The notes beneath the pieces were generated by a model that worked only from the letters and a program-made list of their open reading frames with translations, searched no databases and had not been told where the DNA came from. 32,015 nucleotides of DNA from a virus (taxonomy: Duplodnaviria > Caudoviricetes), in the IMG/VR virus record IMGVR_UViG_3300033405_000056, positions 1 through 32,015 of that record. One strand, given 5' to 3'. This document shows positions 2,215-27,937 of this stretch, one piece after another. Each line of letters opens with the position of its first letter. Position 1 is the first letter of the stretch. The translations under genes and the position numbers were made by a program.

Positions 2215-3003
2215 TCACGGGTTCACGATTGTGGTTCCGTGGTTCGCAACGTACGGCGAAGCGATAGGCGTGGGCGCGCTCCACGTGGACCAGTTGTTCG
2301 TGCTGACCGAGTAGCTCTGTCCCACGGAGTCGGTGTTGTTGTCGAAGTAAATGATCCAGTTGTCTCCGCCCGTGTTCAGCACACATGGGCCTTCGTAGGT
2401 CGGGGAGTTCCCCCAACCTGCCCAGTTGCCGGTTTCGACAGCCGTGAATATGCCGGTGGGGGAGGACGAGGTGGCGTATTCGACATAGCCCGTGTTGTTG
2501 TTCTTGTACCAGAGATAGTAGGCACCCCCCGCGTAAACGACGTAGGGGTCGATCGAGTAGTTTCCGGAGTAGACCTGGCTGAAGCTGCTCCATGATGTGA
2601 GCGATGTGTTGAGAGCCTGGGCGACGTAAATACTGAAGGGGCTGGTGGTCAATCCGCCGCTCGTCGAAATCGCGACGTAGACATAAACGTTCCCTGAAAC
2701 CGGGTCCTGGAAAAATTCCGGTGCCCATACGCGCACGGTTCCAGAAACCCCAGGGGACACCGCAATTTCGCTTGACCACGTGCCTAGATTGGTTGCCGAT
2801 CTTATCCCAAAATTGGTCTCTACGGATGTTGAGTTTTGGCAATTAGTGTAGGCAATCCAATAGCTGCCGTCGTAGTACATGATGGAGGGGTCGCGGAGAT
2901 AGCCTGAAGATCCGTCTACCATGAACGAATCGAGCAGAGTCCAACTGATGCCGTCCGGAGACGACAGCAATTGAAGGTTTGGTGAGGTCCCGAAAGAGGC
3001 CAT
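2215..3003 (-). CDS. GH43-like five-bladed beta-propeller glycoside hydrolase
   Basis: Motifs LRDPSI, VWAPEF, SIDPYV, YYLWYK, YEGP and NHGT match GH43/clan F propellers. Confidence 0.8.
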   Translation of the reverse strand: MASFGTSPNLQLLSSPDGISWTLLDSFMVDGSSGYLRDPSIMYYDGSYWIAYTNCQNSTSVETNFGIRSATNLGTWSSEIAVSPGVSGTVRVWAPEFFQDPVSGNVYVYVAISTSGGLTTSPFSIYVAQALNTSLTSWSSFSQVYSGNYSIDPYVVYAGGAYYLWYKNNNTGYVEYATSSSPTGIFTAVETGNWAGWGNSPTYEGPCVLNTGGDNWIIYFDNNTDSVGQSYSVSTNNWSTWSAPTPIASPYVANHGTTIVNP

Positions 3004-8141: not shown

Positions 8142-9457
8142 GCGCTCGCCCCCTGCTCGTCGTAGGACACGTAGAGCTTGCCCATGGCGTAGCCCAGGGC
8201 GATCCCGTAGCAATCGAGCGAGTTGGCGGAGTAATTCGGCCCGGTCAGGATCGAACCTGGCGGTGTCAGATTGCCGGCATTGACGATTGAGCTATTGAAC
8301 AGGGGCCGGATGTCAGGGCCGAATTCCTCGGTGCGCGTGGTGTCCGAACGCCGCAGTCCTCCTGGTGACACGAAGTAGTCGACGAGTCCCTTACCCTTGA
8401 CCACGGCAAACGCGCTGGTGAGTCCGACGCCGTCCTCGATCTGCTCGAGCGTCCCCGTATAGGGATCCCCGATCAGCACCCAGACGGACTTTTCCTTGTA
8501 GATCACCAACACGCCCGTGTGATCGGTGCACCAGATGATCGCTTCGCCGTCTTGGCCCACATCGACCCATGCCCCCGCGGCAGGATCAGTGTTCCAGTAC
8601 TGCGGTTGACCCGGCGGGGTGTAAAAGAGCCGGTTGCCCACCCAGCTATACAACGCATCGAAATATGGACCGGCCAGGCCGCAACCTGCGGGAGGCAGGC
8701 CGTTGCCGATAGGCATCTGCTCGCCATTGTCCGTGATGGTCAGGTCATTCGTATTCCACGTGCCGGTTGTCGTGCCGTTGGCGACGGTGAGGCAGAGATA
8801 GGCGCCGCCCAGCGTTCCCCCCACGGCGTAGATGTTCACAAAGCCCACGCGCGGATCGGTCGAAACGGGGATACCGGTGAAATTGACGTCCTGATCCGCC
8901 ACGGTTACCGCGATCGATTGCGGGCCGCCGTTCGATTCCGCGGTTTGATCCGTCGCTTCGAAGGTCGCGTAGAAGTTGTAAGTGCCGTTAGGGCCAGTAG
9001 AATCCGTCGCGCCGGCGGCCGGCGTGGGCGCGCTCGACGGCCCGGTGATGGCCCATGCCCAGAACGCCGCACCGTCATGGTAGCCCTGGACGTTCCGGTC
9101 CATGATGAACATCTTGCCGAGCATGGCTGCGAAGCCGACTCGAAAACCGCTCAGGCCGCTCACGATGGGCGTCGATCCGCCGTTGTAGTAAACGCTGCAG
9201 GGGTTCGGGCCGCTCAGGACGTTGCACGCGGTGTAATAGCTGGTCTCATCGCCGCCATTGTTGGCGGAACTGTGCGCGTAGCCTACGCCGGCAATGCGGT
9301 ATTTCTGCGGGTAACCCCAGCGCTGCACCAGTTTGCCGGTGCGGTCGACGCGAAAGTTCTGGCCGAGCAGGATCGAAGTCTTGGGAACTTTGTCCCCGGG
9401 ATCCGCGAGCGAGAACTTGTCGGCCAGGATCTGCAGTTTTTCACGGGTATACCCCAC
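8138..9457 (-). CDS. Tail nozzle/stabilisation protein (P22 gp10 / T7 tubular protein B-like), N-terminal part
   Basis: 'GQNFRVDRTGKLVQRWGY', 'NRLFYT', 'LVIYKEKSVWVL' and 'GVGLTSAFAV' beta-propeller-type motifs; lies after the adaptor genes. Confidence 0.7.
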   Translation of the reverse strand: MGYTREKLQILADKFSLADPGDKVPKTSILLGQNFRVDRTGKLVQRWGYPQKYRIAGVGYAHSSANNGGDETSYYTACNVLSGPNPCSVYYNGGSTPIVSGLSGFRVGFAAMLGKMFIMDRNVQGYHDGAAFWAWAITGPSSAPTPAAGATDSTGPNGTYNFYATFEATDQTAESNGGPQSIAVTVADQDVNFTGIPVSTDPRVGFVNIYAVGGTLGGAYLCLTVANGTTTGTWNTNDLTITDNGEQMPIGNGLPPAGCGLAGPYFDALYSWVGNRLFYTPPGQPQYWNTDPAAGAWVDVGQDGEAIIWCTDHTGVLVIYKEKSVWVLIGDPYTGTLEQIEDGVGLTSAFAVVKGKGLVDYFVSPGGLRRSDTTRTEEFGPDIRPLFNSSIVNAGNLTPPGSILTGPNYSANSLDCYGIALGYAMGKLYVSYDEQGASA

Positions 9458-11500: not shown

Positions 11501-11515
11501 AATCAGTCATTCGAC
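11498..11515 (-). promoter_or_regulatory. GTCGAA late-promoter motif
   Basis: GTCGAA-TGACTGATT-GTG. Confidence 0.6.
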
Positions 11516-12607: not shown

Positions 12608-12910
12608 ATGGACAATGGTTTCGTCACAATCGGCAGTCACAACATCCCGCTGACAGGCATCCGGGATGTCGATACGCAGTATGAGCGCAATCAGAGCGAG
12701 GGTGGGGGAACGTGCGTGAGGCTCTGGCTCAATACTCAGCCAGGCAGCCCCGGACCCACCTTCTACGACTTCCGCGGCAACCAGGCCCAGCAGATCCGCA
12801 GAAACCTGCTGGCACTAGGGAACACAGGCTCGTGCATGGTCTTGCTCGAAGCCGGCGAGACAGGCGAAACTGCCGAACCGCCGAAAGGCAAGACTGCCGG
12901 CGCCAAATAG
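12608..12910 (+). CDS. Hypothetical moron-like protein
   Basis: Opposite strand within the structural block; own TACGAT -10 (12582), GGGAG SD and downstream hairpin. Confidence 0.7.
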   Translation: MDNGFVTIGSHNIPLTGIRDVDTQYERNQSEGGGTCVRLWLNTQPGSPGPTFYDFRGNQAQQIRRNLLALGNTGSCMVLLEAGETGETAEPPKGKTAGAK

Positions 12911-12950: not shown

Positions 12951-14564
12951 CTAGTAACCCTCGCACGTCCAAGCGACCACGTCTCCGACTCCAAAGGCAG
13001 ATGTAGCCGTGATCGTCAATTGAGATGTGGTCTCAGCCCATGTCAGCCCGGTATTTAGGCTTGTCGTGGTCCTGTCTCGCACGTAACAGTTCACGTAGCT
13101 TCGCGAGTATGCGCTTGACCAGTAGATGATACCGGTCGTGGCCGTCCCACCGGTGCCTATGACTACTTGGCCAGCACTGTCGAATCCATTGATACTGGGA
13201 TTGGTGCCAAATCCGGAATGCACAGTGGGGGAGCCGCCCTGCCCCGTTACATGCCCAAAATATGCATCTGGAGTCGCAAAGTGATTATAGCCAGGAGCGT
13301 AAATGCCGTACGCTGTACCATAGCCTCCGAGTTGACCTGTCGGATAGGCCAGTGACACATTTTCGGCGTAGCAATTCTGAGTGGTCGCGCTGTTGGGGTT
13401 GTAAACAATAATGGCCGGGCACGATGAGCTAGAGTGGATTGCATATCCATTTGCCCATGAGGCCCCATCTGTCGTGATATTAGAATTGGAGTCGATCACC
13501 GGAGCTAGTACCCCGAACTGTCCAGGGAAACGAATTGCTTGCGCTGTGCCAGACGCACCGGCGGCTATCTGGACTCCGTAAAGCGACACCGTACCATTCT
13601 TGACCCAGATTCCATAATTCTCGAACGCTTCAACATTGGATCCGGAGATTGTCACATATGAGTAAGTATTCGCGGAATCTCCCAGTGATGTGCTCTGCCC
13701 GAGCGCGGCCCAGTTAACATTTGAACCAGAGCCATCTAAGCCGTTGCAGTTGCTTATCGTCGCCGATCCTTGGTAAATTACATAGGCAGACTTGCCGCTG
13801 CCGACTGCATGCACGTAACTGTTTGCAATCGTGCTGGCTGGCCAGCCATTTATCTCGATGCCGTTGTCGGCACTGCTGGTACATCCTACCTCGTCGATCA
13901 ACGTCGAGAACGCATCGGGAAGGTAGACGCATCTACCACCCACCCCCACGACCGTAACGTCATGGATCGTCAAATTATTGGTGAACGTATCGTTGTGAAT
14001 GTATATTCCGTGGTTCGACACGCCTCCGTTTCCATTGATTCCCAGGTCTCGAATGGTGAGTGCAGATATCGAGGCACCGGTCGTCTCGATCACGCCTGTG
14101 CCGGTGCGACTCTTGATCACCGAATTGAGCGGTCCATCGCCATATACCAGCATCCCGGACACATTGATGCAGGTAATTGTGTCCGTCAAGTACGTCCCCG
14201 CGGGAAAATAAAGTGCAGTGGTCGCCGCCTTGGCGGCTGCGCACGCGTTAGCAATGGCCGTCGTATCGTTAGCGGAGCCATTGCCAACAGCGCCGTACGA
14301 CTTGACGTTGATCGGCATCGCTGGAGAATAGAGCACGTTTGCGCCGAGTGTCCCAGTGGGAGCACCGCTAGGTAAAGTAGTCCCTATCGCGACGGTGCCT
14401 GGGATCCTGGTGACCGACGTCGCTCCGCTTCCGGTCACGGTGCTCCCCACTGGCAACGACGGGCCTCCAACGCAAGCCCCGTTGCTGAGCACGTATCCGT
14501 TGGGACAGTTCTGCGCCACAAGCGGAAACACCGCGAAAACCGCGGCGAGTATCCAGAGTTTCAT
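12951..14564 (-). CDS. Pectate-lyase-superfamily beta-helix protein (tailspike/depolymerase-like) with a signal-peptide-like N-terminus
   Basis: INVKSYGAVGNGSANDTTAI...LYFPAGTY motif; real start ATG 14564 (MKLWILAAVFAVFPLVAQ) after an AAGGAAGG SD; visibly lower GC than flanking genes. Confidence 0.8.
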   Translation of the reverse strand: MKLWILAAVFAVFPLVAQNCPNGYVLSNGACVGGPSLPVGSTVTGSGATSVTRIPGTVAIGTTLPSGAPTGTLGANVLYSPAMPINVKSYGAVGNGSANDTTAIANACAAAKAATTALYFPAGTYLTDTITCINVSGMLVYGDGPLNSVIKSRTGTGVIETTGASISALTIRDLGINGNGGVSNHGIYIHNDTFTNNLTIHDVTVVGVGGRCVYLPDAFSTLIDEVGCTSSADNGIEINGWPASTIANSYVHAVGSGKSAYVIYQGSATISNCNGLDGSGSNVNWAALGQSTSLGDSANTYSYVTISGSNVEAFENYGIWVKNGTVSLYGVQIAAGASGTAQAIRFPGQFGVLAPVIDSNSNITTDGASWANGYAIHSSSSCPAIIVYNPNSATTQNCYAENVSLAYPTGQLGGYGTAYGIYAPGYNHFATPDAYFGHVTGQGGSPTVHSGFGTNPSINGFDSAGQVVIGTGGTATTGIIYWSSAYSRSYVNCYVRDRTTTSLNTGLTWAETTSQLTITATSAFGVGDVVAWTCEGY

Positions 14565-14575
14565 AAACCTTCCTT

Positions 14576-14986
14576 TTACGGTAGAATTTCCGCGTCGACC
14601 TGAAGCGTGGCTGCGTTGCCTGTGCCGAGCGTGAGCTGGACGGCCCATTGCAGGGGCAGATGTAGGCCCATCACGCCAAGGGATGCGCCCCCGGACGCGA
14701 CCTGCGATGGCAGCCACGCGCCCGGGTAAAAGTCGAAGACAAACGTGCCCGCCGTCGAGAGAATGCCCGCGGCCGAGAAGCCAGCCAGAGGAATCAGCGT
14801 CCCGGTGCTGGGGACTGCGCCGCACAGAAAAAGGCTGTCGGTTGCGTCTGCGCTGGTGACGGCAGAGACGGTGACGTAGAGCCGGATGCCCCGGCCCCAC
14901 GTGTTGGTTTCGACTTGCGAGGTATACGTGCCCGCCGTGAAGGCCGTGGCCCGCACGACATTTGGCCTGTAGCTCTTGTTCTGCAT
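14576..14986 (-). CDS. Hypothetical virion protein
   Basis: Start MQNKSY directly after the upstream stop; beta-rich (GRGIRLYVTVSAVT). Confidence 0.6.
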   Translation of the reverse strand: MQNKSYRPNVVRATAFTAGTYTSQVETNTWGRGIRLYVTVSAVTSADATDSLFLCGAVPSTGTLIPLAGFSAAGILSTAGTFVFDFYPGAWLPSQVASGGASLGVMGLHLPLQWAVQLTLGTGNAATLQVDAEILP

Positions 14987-19814: not shown

Positions 19815-20117
19815 GTGGATGGCTCCGGGGGCTTTTTTGAACGCTTCCGCGGCCTTTTGGGCGGCCTCCAGCTTCGCCCGCATCTCGTCGAGCATACGTT
19901 CCCCGATCGCGGGAATTACTTCGAGCGCTTTGGCGGCGCCCTGCGCCTGCCACATCGTGATCTGGTCGGTAGCCCGGACGCACAGGTCCACGGCACGCCT
20001 GTGCTCCTGCTCGATGCGCGCCATGATTGCCTTGTAGGCGTCGGAATCCAGTAAGGCCCGGAATTCGGTCACATCGAAATGATCGATGTGGTCGGGGGGC
20101 GAGATTTTGGTTGTCAT
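19806..20117 (-). CDS. Small protein following the portal gene
   Basis: Helical protein with a WQAQG motif; ATG lies 9 nt after GTCGAA. Confidence 0.75.
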   Translation of the reverse strand: MTTKISPPDHIDHFDVTEFRALLDSDAYKAIMARIEQEHRRAVDLCVRATDQITMWQAQGAAKALEVIPAIGERMLDEMRAKLEAAQKAAEAFKKAPGAIHVE

Positions 20118-20139
20118 GCCCCGCCATTCGACTTATCAT
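20111..20139 (+). promoter_or_regulatory. Sigma70-type promoter for the mini-CRISPR RNA
   Basis: TTGTCA (20111-20116), 17 nt, TATCAT (20134-20139). Confidence 0.7.
20115..20132 (-). promoter_or_regulatory. GTCGAA late-promoter motif
   Basis: GTCGAA-TGGCGGGGC-ATG. Confidence 0.7.
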
Positions 20140-20140
20140 G

Positions 20141-20231
20141 GGGGGCGAAGGCGAGCGGCCCCATTGAAGCATGTCCTTCACGTGCCGCACCATGTGCAGC
20201 AGATCGAATTTTTCCGCTCGCCTTTGCCCCC
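20141..20231 (+). CRISPR. Cas-less single-spacer mini-CRISPR with split type I-G-like repeat halves
   Basis: 3' repeat half GCGAGCGGCCCCATTGAAGC (20151-20170), a spacer of about 37 nt (20171-20207), then 5' repeat half TTTTTCCGCTCGC (20209-20221). Arms 20141-20158 and 20214-20231 are complementary. The spacer is homologous to portal 20545-20580. Confidence 0.75.
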
Positions 20232-22457
20232 TTACGAATTGCCGTGCAGGCTTTCATCGTGGCCGCTGTAAAGAAACGGCCCCGAAGCAACCGGGTTGCC
20301 CGGTGGCTGCGAAATCGGCCCGCGCCACAATCCGTTGGGCATCTCGACCGGCTGCGCGCCCGCGATGGCTTGCGCCGAGCGCGCGCCGCTCTGCGCGATT
20401 TGCGATGCGGCCTGTATCGCCTGCTCGATCACGGCCTGCTGAATCTTCTTCTGTTGGAGCTGCTGGATGTGTTCCTGGTAGTGCAGGATCAGTTTGGCCA
20501 GCGCTTCCGGGTCCGCATGTTGCATGTCGGCTTCGCACGATTTGATATCGCGCATGTGCCTGATCATATGTAGCAAGTCGTTGTCCATTGGGTTCACGAC
20601 AACGGTCTCGCCGTGCAACAGGTTCACCCATTCGGTCTTCGGATCCACGGACGCATCAGGCTGCGGAGGCCGCGGCACAAGCGCCTCAAATTCCGGATCC
20701 CCCAGCGCATCGTGGGCTTCGCGAGTCACTTCCCAGAGCGCTAACGGGTTATTTACGATCAACGGATTCTGCAAGTCGAGCTGGTAGCGCGCGAGGGTCT
20801 TTTCCTTGTCGGCTTCCCTCGACCAGACGGAATTCGCGAACTGCAGCCGGAAATCGTAGCGGCCGTCGCGGTCTTCGAGGGAGAGGTAGGAGCCACCCTT
20901 GGCCACGGGAAACGCGCCATCCGCGTCTTCCTCGGTCACGCGGAAGAACGTCTCGTCGTTCGAGAAGGCGTACTCGAGCTGCCAGAAATGCTGTAACACA
21001 AGCGCCATATCCTCGCGCAAGACCTTGGTGTCGAGCGAGATCCGCACGTTGCCCTCTTCGAGTAGCGACACGGTCTGTTGGGCCGTCCGCGGCGCGTTCG
21101 GCCGATCGGACTGTCTCCCCATCTGCAGATCACCCATGCCGGTGAGCTTTTCGCCGTAGGCCAGGGTGCACTGCTCTTTCCACTGCGCGATCTGTAGGTC
21201 CGTCGTGATGGTGAGCTGCTTGATGTCCGTCGCCGGATTGTCGAGCGGGATCGCCATGCCCGGCTCCATCTTGAAGGTGTCGGGATTGAAGCCGCTAGCT
21301 GGCCGATAGCCTACCGGCGGATTCATGGCGAGCTGGCCGCCCTCGGTCGCCTGGTTGTGATTGACGCGGAGCTCGTCTTCGAGATTGATGAGCATCTCGG
21401 CCATGCCCATCGACCAATACGAGCCGTCTTTGACCATCGAGGCCTCGACGAAGGGCCGCTTGTTCTTCACGGTCGGGTAGAGCGCATCGAGCGATTGCAC
21501 GCCCACGATGATGTGGAGATCCCAGAGGTACCGGACCACGAAATCCTTTTGCAACATCTCCCGCTTCTTCCAGTCCCACTCGCTGGCATCGGCCTTGCCT
21601 TTCTTCAGCGGGCGCCAGCGGCCATACCATTCCAGAACGAGCAGATTTTCGCCGGCGGAGATAGGCCGCTCGTACATGAGGCCCTCGGCTTCGTCCTGCT
21701 CGCGTTTGATCTCGTCGCCCTCGGATTCGCGCTGGATGCCGTGCTGGGCCATGTTGATGATTTGCTGCCAGTTCTTGCCGATGTTCTGGAAGCGGCCTTC
21801 CTGCTCGCCGCGCAGCAGCGCGTCCGGAGTCATCCGGCATTTGCGGATACAGAAGCTGAACTGGTGCAGTGTCTCGACTTCCTCGCACGGGACCACGAAA
21901 TCGTCCGGATAGAGCGGGAGGAAGTCCGGACCCTCGTAATCGGTGATGGTGACCGGTTCATTGGTTTCGGGCCGCGTCACTTCGAAGGTGTCGCGCAGCC
22001 AGGGCGAGTAGGCCACGCTTCGGCCGAAGAGCAGCTTGCGCAGCACGAAGGTGCAAAACCGCGACGTCAGCTTCATGGAGGTGAACAGGCGCCAGGTCAT
22101 GTACCGCGAGATCTTCTTGTCGCGTTTGAAGTCCGAGGGGCCTACCGGGACCGCCACAATTTCCGCGTCGTCGCCGAACAGCGCGTCCATCTCCTTCGAC
22201 CACTTGGTGAAAATGTTCCACTGGACATAGGGCACCGGGACGTTCGACGCGGTTTCTTCGCCCTGATTCGGCACGTCGACCATCTGGCGCCATCGGCGGT
22301 AATACTCGCGCCACTTCTCCATGCGCCGGTTGTGGTCGGCGAGGGCGTTGCGGTAGTCAGACTGGATCCGGTTCGCGATGCGGGCCAACTCAGCCGCGGG
22401 CCATTTGAGCTGGAATGAGTCGTTGGAGGTAGTGTCTAAGGCGGTTTCGTCGGCCAC
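20232..22457 (-). CDS. Portal protein
   Basis: About 740 aa after the terminase region; DFVVP, YWSMGMAE, TGMGDLQMG and PRTAQ motifs of P22/T7-type portals. Start is GTG 22457 or in-frame GTG 22508, each behind a GTCGAA motif. Confidence 0.88.
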   Translation of the reverse strand: MADETALDTTSNDSFQLKWPAAELARIANRIQSDYRNALADHNRRMEKWREYYRRWRQMVDVPNQGEETASNVPVPYVQWNIFTKWSKEMDALFGDDAEIVAVPVGPSDFKRDKKISRYMTWRLFTSMKLTSRFCTFVLRKLLFGRSVAYSPWLRDTFEVTRPETNEPVTITDYEGPDFLPLYPDDFVVPCEEVETLHQFSFCIRKCRMTPDALLRGEQEGRFQNIGKNWQQIINMAQHGIQRESEGDEIKREQDEAEGLMYERPISAGENLLVLEWYGRWRPLKKGKADASEWDWKKREMLQKDFVVRYLWDLHIIVGVQSLDALYPTVKNKRPFVEASMVKDGSYWSMGMAEMLINLEDELRVNHNQATEGGQLAMNPPVGYRPASGFNPDTFKMEPGMAIPLDNPATDIKQLTITTDLQIAQWKEQCTLAYGEKLTGMGDLQMGRQSDRPNAPRTAQQTVSLLEEGNVRISLDTKVLREDMALVLQHFWQLEYAFSNDETFFRVTEEDADGAFPVAKGGSYLSLEDRDGRYDFRLQFANSVWSREADKEKTLARYQLDLQNPLIVNNPLALWEVTREAHDALGDPEFEALVPRPPQPDASVDPKTEWVNLLHGETVVVNPMDNDLLHMIRHMRDIKSCEADMQHADPEALAKLILHYQEHIQQLQQKKIQQAVIEQAIQAASQIAQSGARSAQAIAGAQPVEMPNGLWRGPISQPPGNPVASGPFLYSGHDESLHGNS

Positions 22458-22523
22458 GCCCGCTATTCGACTGACAAGCCCCGGTCCCGCTTGCTTGTAT
22501 GTCCACACAAGCCCGTATTCGAC
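22455..22523 (-). promoter_or_regulatory. Two tandem GTCGAA motifs before the portal gene
   Basis: GTCGAA-TACGGGCTT-GTG(22508) and GTCGAA-TAGCGGGC-GTG(22457). Confidence 0.65.
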
Positions 22524-26564: not shown

Positions 26565-27218
26565 CTACGCGGCCTTGTCGAGTCCCATGCCCCACATGAG
26601 CACCTTGGCTCCCAGCGTAGCCCGCGCACTCGCTAGCTTCGCCCGTGCCCACGCCACGCTGCGGCGCCGCTTCTCCGCGATCGCGATCAATGAGGCGCCC
26701 CCCACCGACATGGTGAATACCTCGCGTTCGTCTGCCGGCAAATCCTGGACCGCCTGCGAGAGCAAGTAAGCCTGCTCGCGCTTCTGCGCGGTCTCTTCGG
26801 GCATGGGGGCATTGTCGCGCACAATCCGAATGGCGGCCATCTTGCGCGGATCGGGCCTTTCGATGTACCCTTCGCCCACCCCGCTCTCGTCGATCGTCAC
26901 CAGGCTGAGGGTGTCATCCTTGTACGCTCGCCGCTTGTGCGCGTCGATCATGGCGCCGCGGATTCTGAAGTAAGAGAAGGCCTGGAACGTCTTGCCCTTC
27001 GCAGGATCGAACAGCCGATCGGCTTCGAGCAGCCCCACGTATCCCGACTGGATGAGATCCTCGATCGAGACGTGGGTCATGTGCCGGTGCACCTGGCGGG
27101 CAATACGCTCGACGATCGGGACGCATTCGAGCAAGATGGCCTCGCGGTTCTTTTTCCAGCGCACGCGGGCCGCATAGCGCGCCCACTGGGTCCGGGTCAG
27201 CTCAATCTTTTTGGGCAA
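26565..27218 (-). CDS. Phage-encoded sigma-70-family sigma factor, FliA/WhiG-like
   Basis: Region 2: EDLIQSGYVGLLEADRLFDPAKGKTFQAFSYFRIRGAMID; region 4: LSQAVQDLPADEREVF...SLIAIAE. Confidence 0.9.
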   Translation of the reverse strand: MPKKIELTRTQWARYAARVRWKKNREAILLECVPIVERIARQVHRHMTHVSIEDLIQSGYVGLLEADRLFDPAKGKTFQAFSYFRIRGAMIDAHKRRAYKDDTLSLVTIDESGVGEGYIERPDPRKMAAIRIVRDNAPMPEETAQKREQAYLLSQAVQDLPADEREVFTMSVGGASLIAIAEKRRRSVAWARAKLASARATLGAKVLMWGMGLDKAA

Positions 27219-27672: not shown

Positions 27673-27937
27673 GGGGCCTCGCGTAGAAACGCTCCCTGAG
27701 TTGGTCCCAGCCGCAGTTGATGGCCGCAGCCTGGGCGCGCTCTATCATGGCCGCAGCCTGGGCGCGCTCTATCGGGGACTCGACCCACGCGAGCCCGTTG
27801 GGCGACTCGATCCACCCGAGACCGTTGCCAGGCCCCGGCAGAAACTGTAATTGCCTTGCGCCGTGGATATCGCAATCCGCGCGCGGTTCGTTCTTCCGGA
27901 CCACGTCGGTGCAGCCGCAGGCGTATTCCACGATCAT
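27662..27937 (-). CDS. Hypothetical protein with internal 9-aa duplications
   Basis: ATGA overlap start; NGLGWIESP/NGLAWVESP and IERAQAAA twice. Confidence 0.55.
   Translation of the reverse strand: MIVEYACGCTDVVRKNEPRADCDIHGARQLQFLPGPGNGLGWIESPNGLAWVESPIERAQAAAMIERAQAAAINCGWDQLRERFYARPRAA
27720..27773. repeat. Perfect 27-bp tandem duplication
   Basis: ATGGCCGCAGCCTGGGCGCGCTCTATC at 27720-27746 and 27747-27773. Confidence 0.9.

Follow-up and report, generated by a model that had tools for sequence, protein, structure and literature searches.

Does a phage that carries a CRISPR-like guide resembling its own portal gene protect that gene by respelling the target in synonymous codons? The question was raised by a stretch of 32,015 nucleotides (the window) from a virus of the Caudoviricetes, positions 1 to 32,015 of IMG/VR record IMGVR_UViG_3300033405_000056. 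A sequence-only reading had noticed a "mini-CRISPR" with a partial match to the portal gene and had proposed self-immunity by recoding.

The phage and its portal gene

The window comprises the packaging and morphogenesis part of a peat phage and is transcribed from the minus strand, with genes in the order sigma factor, terminase large subunit, portal, major head protein, and adaptors. The longest open reading frame of the portal gene (20232-22508, minus strand) has 758 codons; the true start is probably somewhat downstream. Its identity was supported by an alignment of six homologs, which matched the portal of PDB 9k09 with an E value of 1.3e-6, by a match to the PHROG 332 connector (E 3.7e-7), and by its location between the terminase large subunit and major head genes. 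An identical IMG/VR record of 47,414 nt has terminal repeats and is rated complete. Searches of this complete record gave zero matches for cas3g, for a tyrosine integrase, and for csb2, where the positive control also gave none, and Pfam searches with 47 open reading frames of the window found no cas family. The absence of a tyrosine-integrase match would fit co-infection better than prophage defence.

Further features of the window were recorded. Several late genes have the motif GTCGAAT on their coding strand immediately ahead of the start codon, in many cases with a GC-rich run after it (plus-strand hits at 11508, 12563, 19700, 20125, 22787, 24183, and 26340; also near 22465); this motif may be a promoter recognized by the phage sigma factor encoded at 26565-27218. 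An exact 27-nt tandem duplication occupies 27720-27773. The late operon is broken up by a plus-strand open reading frame of 100 codons (12608-12910), which adjoins a beta-helix tail-spike-like gene of low GC content (0.53) at 12951-14900. A gene with a GH43 domain is found at 2215-3003.

A single spacer between swapped repeat halves

The supposed mini-CRISPR is not a repeat-spacer-repeat array. The unit (20111-20232, plus strand) lacks direct repeats and contains one 37-nt spacer between two half-repeats of type I-G that have changed places, and neither a conventional array nor an Rfam family was found in the window by a repeat search and an Rfam search. It starts with a predicted sigma-70-like promoter (20111-20139, plus strand), TTGTCA and TATCAT separated by 17 nt (10 of 12 matches). 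One such site was present in 1 kb, compared with a mean of 0.3 in shuffled sequences, and L010 and L164 carry a similar promoter-like site at the equivalent position. From this predicted promoter, a guide RNA antisense to the late operon would be transcribed. The 3' half of the repeat (20140-20170, plus strand) is laid out as left stem arm (20140-20158), 4-nt linker (20159-20162), and 8-nt 5' handle (20163-20170); then come the spacer (20171-20207, plus strand; 3' boundary uncertain by 1 nt) and the 5' half of the repeat (20208-20232, plus strand), which contains the right stem arm (20214-20232) and ends on the portal stop codon. The halves pair around the spacer in a 19-bp stem (z -5.4, 0 of 200 shuffles). 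In the relative L290, the stem arms are kept with one compensatory pair, and the spacer is replaced. The spacer is of ordinary length, 35-38 nt being found in 623 of 707 host type I-G spacers.

Csb2 of T. sulfidiphilus is reported to cut 4 nt 3' of the hairpin base, leaving an 8-nt handle, and the type I-G PAM is given as TTN (10.1101/2022.08.08.503147). Because exactly a stem, 4 nt, and 8 nt precede the spacer in the unit, a single cut by Csb2 within the permuted stem would release a normal crRNA, its 3' hairpin being provided as a duplex. A permuted repeat without direct repeats is missed by repeat finders and could not be lost via repeat recombination. If it is processed as predicted, the unit would offer type I-G a compact guide that needs only one cut.

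The 16-nt end of the unit's repeat also closes host repeats adjoining csb2, cas7g, cas3g, and cas8g. It was present in 135 of 401 genomes from the family to which a Bryobacterales MAG with a portal homolog belongs, and type I-G cas genes adjoined such arrays in all six regions scanned for open reading frames (27 open reading frames; 6 of 10 regions fetched). A whole host repeat built from the unit's arms gave 0 hits in GTDB. The unit contains only halves, with conserved ends that match host I-G repeats, and not whole repeats identical to a host array. As 707 host spacers gave no convincing match to the phage, the host is deduced only from portal homologs on binned contigs, which were assigned to Terracidiphilus, Bryobacterales, and Verrucomicrobiota. 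The host would possess a type I-G system and likely belongs to the Acidobacteriota.

The spacer and its matches in relatives

Sequence comparison traces the spacer to the portal genes of the phage's own family. Three scans gave 93 rows, reduced to 54 distinct sites including self; two loci did not cover the site. The 53 other homologous sites match the spacer at 20-31 of 37 positions. The own site, with 24/37, is in the middle of this range, and L107, which has no unit, also scores 24. Taken by itself, 24/37 is within chance here, at least 24 being reached by 53 of 300 random 37-mers from the window; what establishes the portal homology is the score in relatives, up to 31/37, together with a local test in which p was 0.003 within 1.2 kb. 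A degenerate spacer pattern retrieved only family portals and the spacer itself from IMG/VR (5 loci) and one locus from GTDB. A TTN PAM was present at 20 of the 54 homologous sites, self included.

No target above 31/37 was found among the sampled relatives, IMG/VR, or GTDB. Spacer position 11 is matched by none of the 53 other sites, implying either that the spacer itself drifted or that its target is unsampled. A search of IMG/VR for an exact target encoding the peptide of the spacer returned the spacer alone, and the window has no second copy of the site above 24/37. The exact stem arm was detected in IMG/VR only in the window's phage and in L010, and a near-identical unit-free strain was not seen in four runs.

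Mismatches at the own site

The own homologous site (protospacer 20545-20581, plus strand) is situated at portal codon 643, 310 nt from the unit, and recurs in another sample with 0 differing letters (run X2, contig 20254-20644). Thirteen mismatches separate it from the spacer (positions 3, 6, 7, 8, 11, 17, 18, 20, 24, 27, 32, 33, and 37). The codons of the site, the intact TTG PAM (20542-20544, plus strand), and the presence of four mismatches in the first eight PAM-proximal positions (3, 6, 7, and 8; seed 4/8) had all been correctly read from the sequence. Three of the mismatches fall on paired seed positions. The claim of synonymous recoding did not hold for the seed: mismatches 6-8 represent Arg CGC versus Lys AAG, and only position 3 is synonymous. 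Arg CGC is found at this place in 11 of 52 homologs, and Ile/Val, Met/Val, and Asn/Phe are further amino acid differences at the own site. The seed is probably protected mostly by the Arg/Lys difference, which is also present in unit-free relatives and may predate the unit. The rare codons are PAM-distal (positions 17, 24, 27, and 32). The CAT change at position 24 is likely unpaired, a prediction that draws on the 6-nt periodicity stated for type I-F.

Codon rarity and synonymous divergence

The codons TTG, CTA, CAT, and AGG had been called atypical for this gene, and for codon rarity this was borne out. Of all in-phase tiles of the portal gene, the one covering the protospacer has the rarest codons (rank 1 of 66 with 11 codons, 1 of 60 with 12 codons; codon-resampling test, P=0.04). 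GC3, on the other hand, is ordinary at 0.70 versus 0.81 (rank 129 of 726). Within-gene percentiles at this position are comparably low (0.03-0.05) in the unit-free portals L151, L128, and L113. A hairpin at the own site was considered as a cause of the odd codons and rejected (z -1.1).

Synonymous mismatch to the spacer was compared among 53 portals, the distant L032 having been dropped. At the own site, 7 degenerate codons encode the residue of the spacer, and 6 of them differ from it in spelling, the top share of all 53, compared with 110 of 327 in the other portals (P about 0.005 from column rates). In five of these six codons, the carrier uses a codon that is in the minority in the family and the spacer uses the majority codon. 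Unit-free relatives do not generally share the carrier's spelling: CTA accounts for 1 of 33 Leu codons in the homologs, AGG for 2 of 52, CAT for 9 of 52, GAT for 12 of 52, and TTG for 1 of 8. The expected local peak of synonymous divergence is present but modest, 0.64 versus 0.45 gene-wide, and the tile ranks 4 of 58 against nine close relatives and 6 of 58 against all. The recoding is, in sum, genuine but of moderate extent, and it accounts for only part of the mismatch. The idea of self-immunity by recoding is partly supported. It survived both refutation tests proposed in the sequence-only reading, codon use being an outlier here and the unit-free relatives having other codons. It gains from the excess of rare synonymous codons and is weakened by a seed protected mostly at the amino acid level, by the modest peak, and by L107, which equals the carrier at 24/37.

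A natural replicate

The relative L010, whose portal is about 75% identical, carries a unit with the same arms and a different spacer at the equivalent place. The match of its spacer lies in the portal as well, some 30 codons beyond the window's target. The window's spacer scores 28/37 on L010 versus 24/37 on self, and the L010 spacer scores 25/36 on the window versus 22/36 on self; each phage fits the spacer of the other better than its own. The codons of L010 at the window's target site are ordinary (percentile 0.63). At its own site, L010 has a rarity percentile of 0.26-0.29 and 6 of 8 synonymous mismatches, compared with 0.52 in others, a difference in the same direction that was non-significant (P=0.14). 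The two carriers did not group as sisters in a quickly built tree; in their clade, two of six members possess a unit after the portal gene and four do not. Sliding identity gave no clear co-conversion tract common to the window and L010.

A wider family of split units

A scan of IMG/VR yielded 67 stretches with 74 distinct spacers, namely 41 in split units (including the window's own and near-duplicates such as L173/L223), 8 in mixed units, and 25 between full repeats. The arms of the split units are unit-specific yet complementary, with a mean of 14.5 bp for own arms and 4.7 bp for swapped arms. A promoter-like site is present in 6 of 40 split units and in 0.75% of controls. At p<=0.01, a local match within 1.2 kb was obtained for 19 of 41 split, 1 of 25 full-repeat, and 0 of 8 mixed spacers, whereas 20 of the 41 split units had no local match even at p<=0.05. 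In a whole-locus test, all 15 significant hits fell within 582 nt (3.5 expected within 1.2 kb); the window's own unit remained below significance in this test. The targets of split units include portal, terminase, major head, and SSB genes. Among the 19 locally matching units, sites with a TTN PAM were less identical to the spacer than sites with a broken PAM (12 versus 7, p=0.038). Seven units had a better non-self target (higher identity or a restored PAM) among the compared loci.

Codon tests were conducted with 22 units. Twenty were split units selected at p<=0.035, from which L187 had been removed manually; L206 and L204 were manual additions. The mean rare-codon percentile was 0.30 at TTN sites versus 0.57 elsewhere (p=0.02). 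This trend persisted without the window (p=0.012) and weakened to p=0.076 without the window and sites near gene starts. Pooled synonymous mismatch was 95 of 179, below the saturation expectation of 107. Eleven of these units are sense to the mRNA and 11 are antisense. Wobble positions coincided with spacer positions 3n in 17 of 22 units, compared with a codon-bias expectation of 0.50 derived from this window (p=0.009). This phasing is suggestive of guides that tolerate synonymous escape; in this test, frames had been assigned partly by synonymy. The spacers of L192 and L222 carry stop codons in the target frame.

Individual cases from the scan are also worth recording. L211, a viral contig of 16.9 kb, has three split I-G units (8247-8306, 9194-9252, and 12625-12682), each matching its own neighboring gene, and two of the own sites lie in the rarest 1% of codon windows. 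Three other phages with portal homologs have I-G units elsewhere (L208:10001-10058, L194:7471-7529, and L214:6495-6551); the L208 spacer scores 29/36 with a TTN PAM on a small open reading frame of relatives versus 23/36 on its own. A full-repeat spacer at L171:7920-7977 matches its own contig at 37/37 with a TTG PAM about 1.9 kb off; this contig may be chimeric or a host-phage junction.

Discussion

Taken together, we consider it somewhat probable that the unit encodes a type I-G guide against relatives and sits beside a resistant, partly respelled portal allele of its own. Guide RNA from the unit would direct the host's I-G Cascade-Cas3 to the portal gene of relatives, which would then be cut. 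The own portal would be a mismatched allele, likely pushed further off by selected synonymous changes. Imperfect self-matches have been argued to carry a priming cost (PMC7099407), and respelling in the PAM-distal part would lower residual binding or primed adaptation against the carrier and not block cutting.

The same guide may be, or have been, aimed at relatives while the own site, resistant from the start through amino acid differences, merely drifted, its rare codons being a chance cluster. We regard this explanation as possible and rather unlikely. It would account for seed mismatches that are a standing Arg/Lys difference, for a score of 24/37 that is ordinary among homologs, for a synonymous-divergence rank of only 4 of 58, and for the non-significant result in L010. 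The private changes in the spacer and the stop codons in the L192 and L222 spacers point the same way, as they imply that spacers decay too. What speaks against drift is that the rarest tile of 66 lies at a position fixed beforehand by the spacer, that the own site is first among 53 portals in synonymous mismatch, and that the changes of the carrier go toward minority codons. An RNA that serves mainly as a decoy tying up host I-G proteins, comparable to RNA anti-CRISPRs, which are known (PMC10651486), with the spacer as filler kept harmless by mismatches, would agree with the failure to find a near-perfect target and with the 20 of 41 split units that have no local match at p<=0.05. Such a decoy needs no full-length spacer with a TTN PAM in the neighboring gene of relatives, however, and would not place 15 of 15 whole-locus hits within 600 nt when 3.5 are expected within 1.2 kb; we judge it improbable.

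At least as improbable, in our estimation, is a functional partial match, in which non-cutting Cascade binding or antisense pairing damps the phage's own portal expression, the alternatives that the sequence-only reading had offered. The guide is indeed antisense to the portal mRNA, the PAM is intact, the site is only 310 nt from the unit, and regulatory mini-arrays exist. Known regulators keep the seed and target promoters, whereas here the seed is the worst-matched part and the site lies at codon 643. The duplex of the guide with its own mRNA (-28.6 kcal/mol) is weaker than with 36 of 53 other sites, and sense and antisense orientations are similarly frequent among other units (11 each in a set of 22).

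Returning to a guide against relatives, the tight linkage of units and targets may point, by analogy with homing endonucleases, to RNA-guided homing. Split-repeat I-G units might accordingly be protein-free, RNA-guided homing elements of phages, an idea that we put forward as a tentative and on balance unlikely one. Host Cascade-Cas3 would cut a co-infecting relative beside the insertion site, and repair would copy the unit together with the respelled resistant allele. Homing would account both for the constant proximity of the targets and for the recoding of the own site. Wild-type I-G Cas3 is reported to cause deletions of 10-55 kb in E. coli with <20% templated repair (10.1101/2023.04.24.538059), and such long deletions argue against neat local repair. 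Adjacency could also reflect selection for linkage between the guide and the resistant allele, or primed acquisition in the vicinity of a previous target.

Comparison with known systems

RNA anti-CRISPRs of the solitary-repeat kind consist of a whole repeat without a targeting spacer; the unit, in contrast, is a split repeat around a portal-derived spacer. A resemblance is seen in crRNA-like regulatory RNAs and phage Cracr (10.1101/2023.03.03.530964; 10.1101/2024.10.29.618823), which likewise are mini-units imperfectly matching a nearby site. Such RNAs are reported to keep the seed, hit cas or toxin promoters, and have shortened spacers. The spacer of the unit, unlike those of CreR and Cracr, is of full length, its target is coding, and its seed is mismatched.

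Free-standing homing endonucleases of T4-like phages are described as a cause of "intronless homing" and marker exclusion (PMC2988022). Like them, the unit is intergenic, has its target hundreds of bases off in a neighboring conserved gene, and is patchily distributed, with empty sites in sister phages. It differs in that about 120 nt contain no endonuclease open reading frame; specificity would reside in the RNA and cutting in host Cas3.

The closest counterparts are viral mini-arrays, which have been linked to interviral conflict (Medvedeva 2019, PMC6858448; model, PMC7099407; review, PMC11656645). Target-adjacent, self-avoiding viral mini-arrays have already been published (PMC6858448, PMC11656645). 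The unit shares with them a single spacer, no cas genes found, a mutated locus in the carrier itself, and a presumed target near the array, in the corresponding locus of related viruses. It is set apart by two swapped repeat halves on a unit-specific stem, by type I-G, by a promoter-like site of its own in place of a leader, by self-avoidance that is likely achieved partly via rare synonymous codons in an essential gene, and by the fact that no perfect target was found. In the openly accessible literature, we found no description of a permuted repeat or of synonymous self-avoidance by mini-arrays. Avoidance of the phage's own CRISPR guide would leave a footprint that can be measured in the codons of this essential gene. 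The origins and consequences of the proximity of mini-array targets have been called unclear (PMC6858448). The split units make this proximity amenable to testing, as they provide about 20 natural cases of a carrier whose own site either has a broken PAM or is more diverged.
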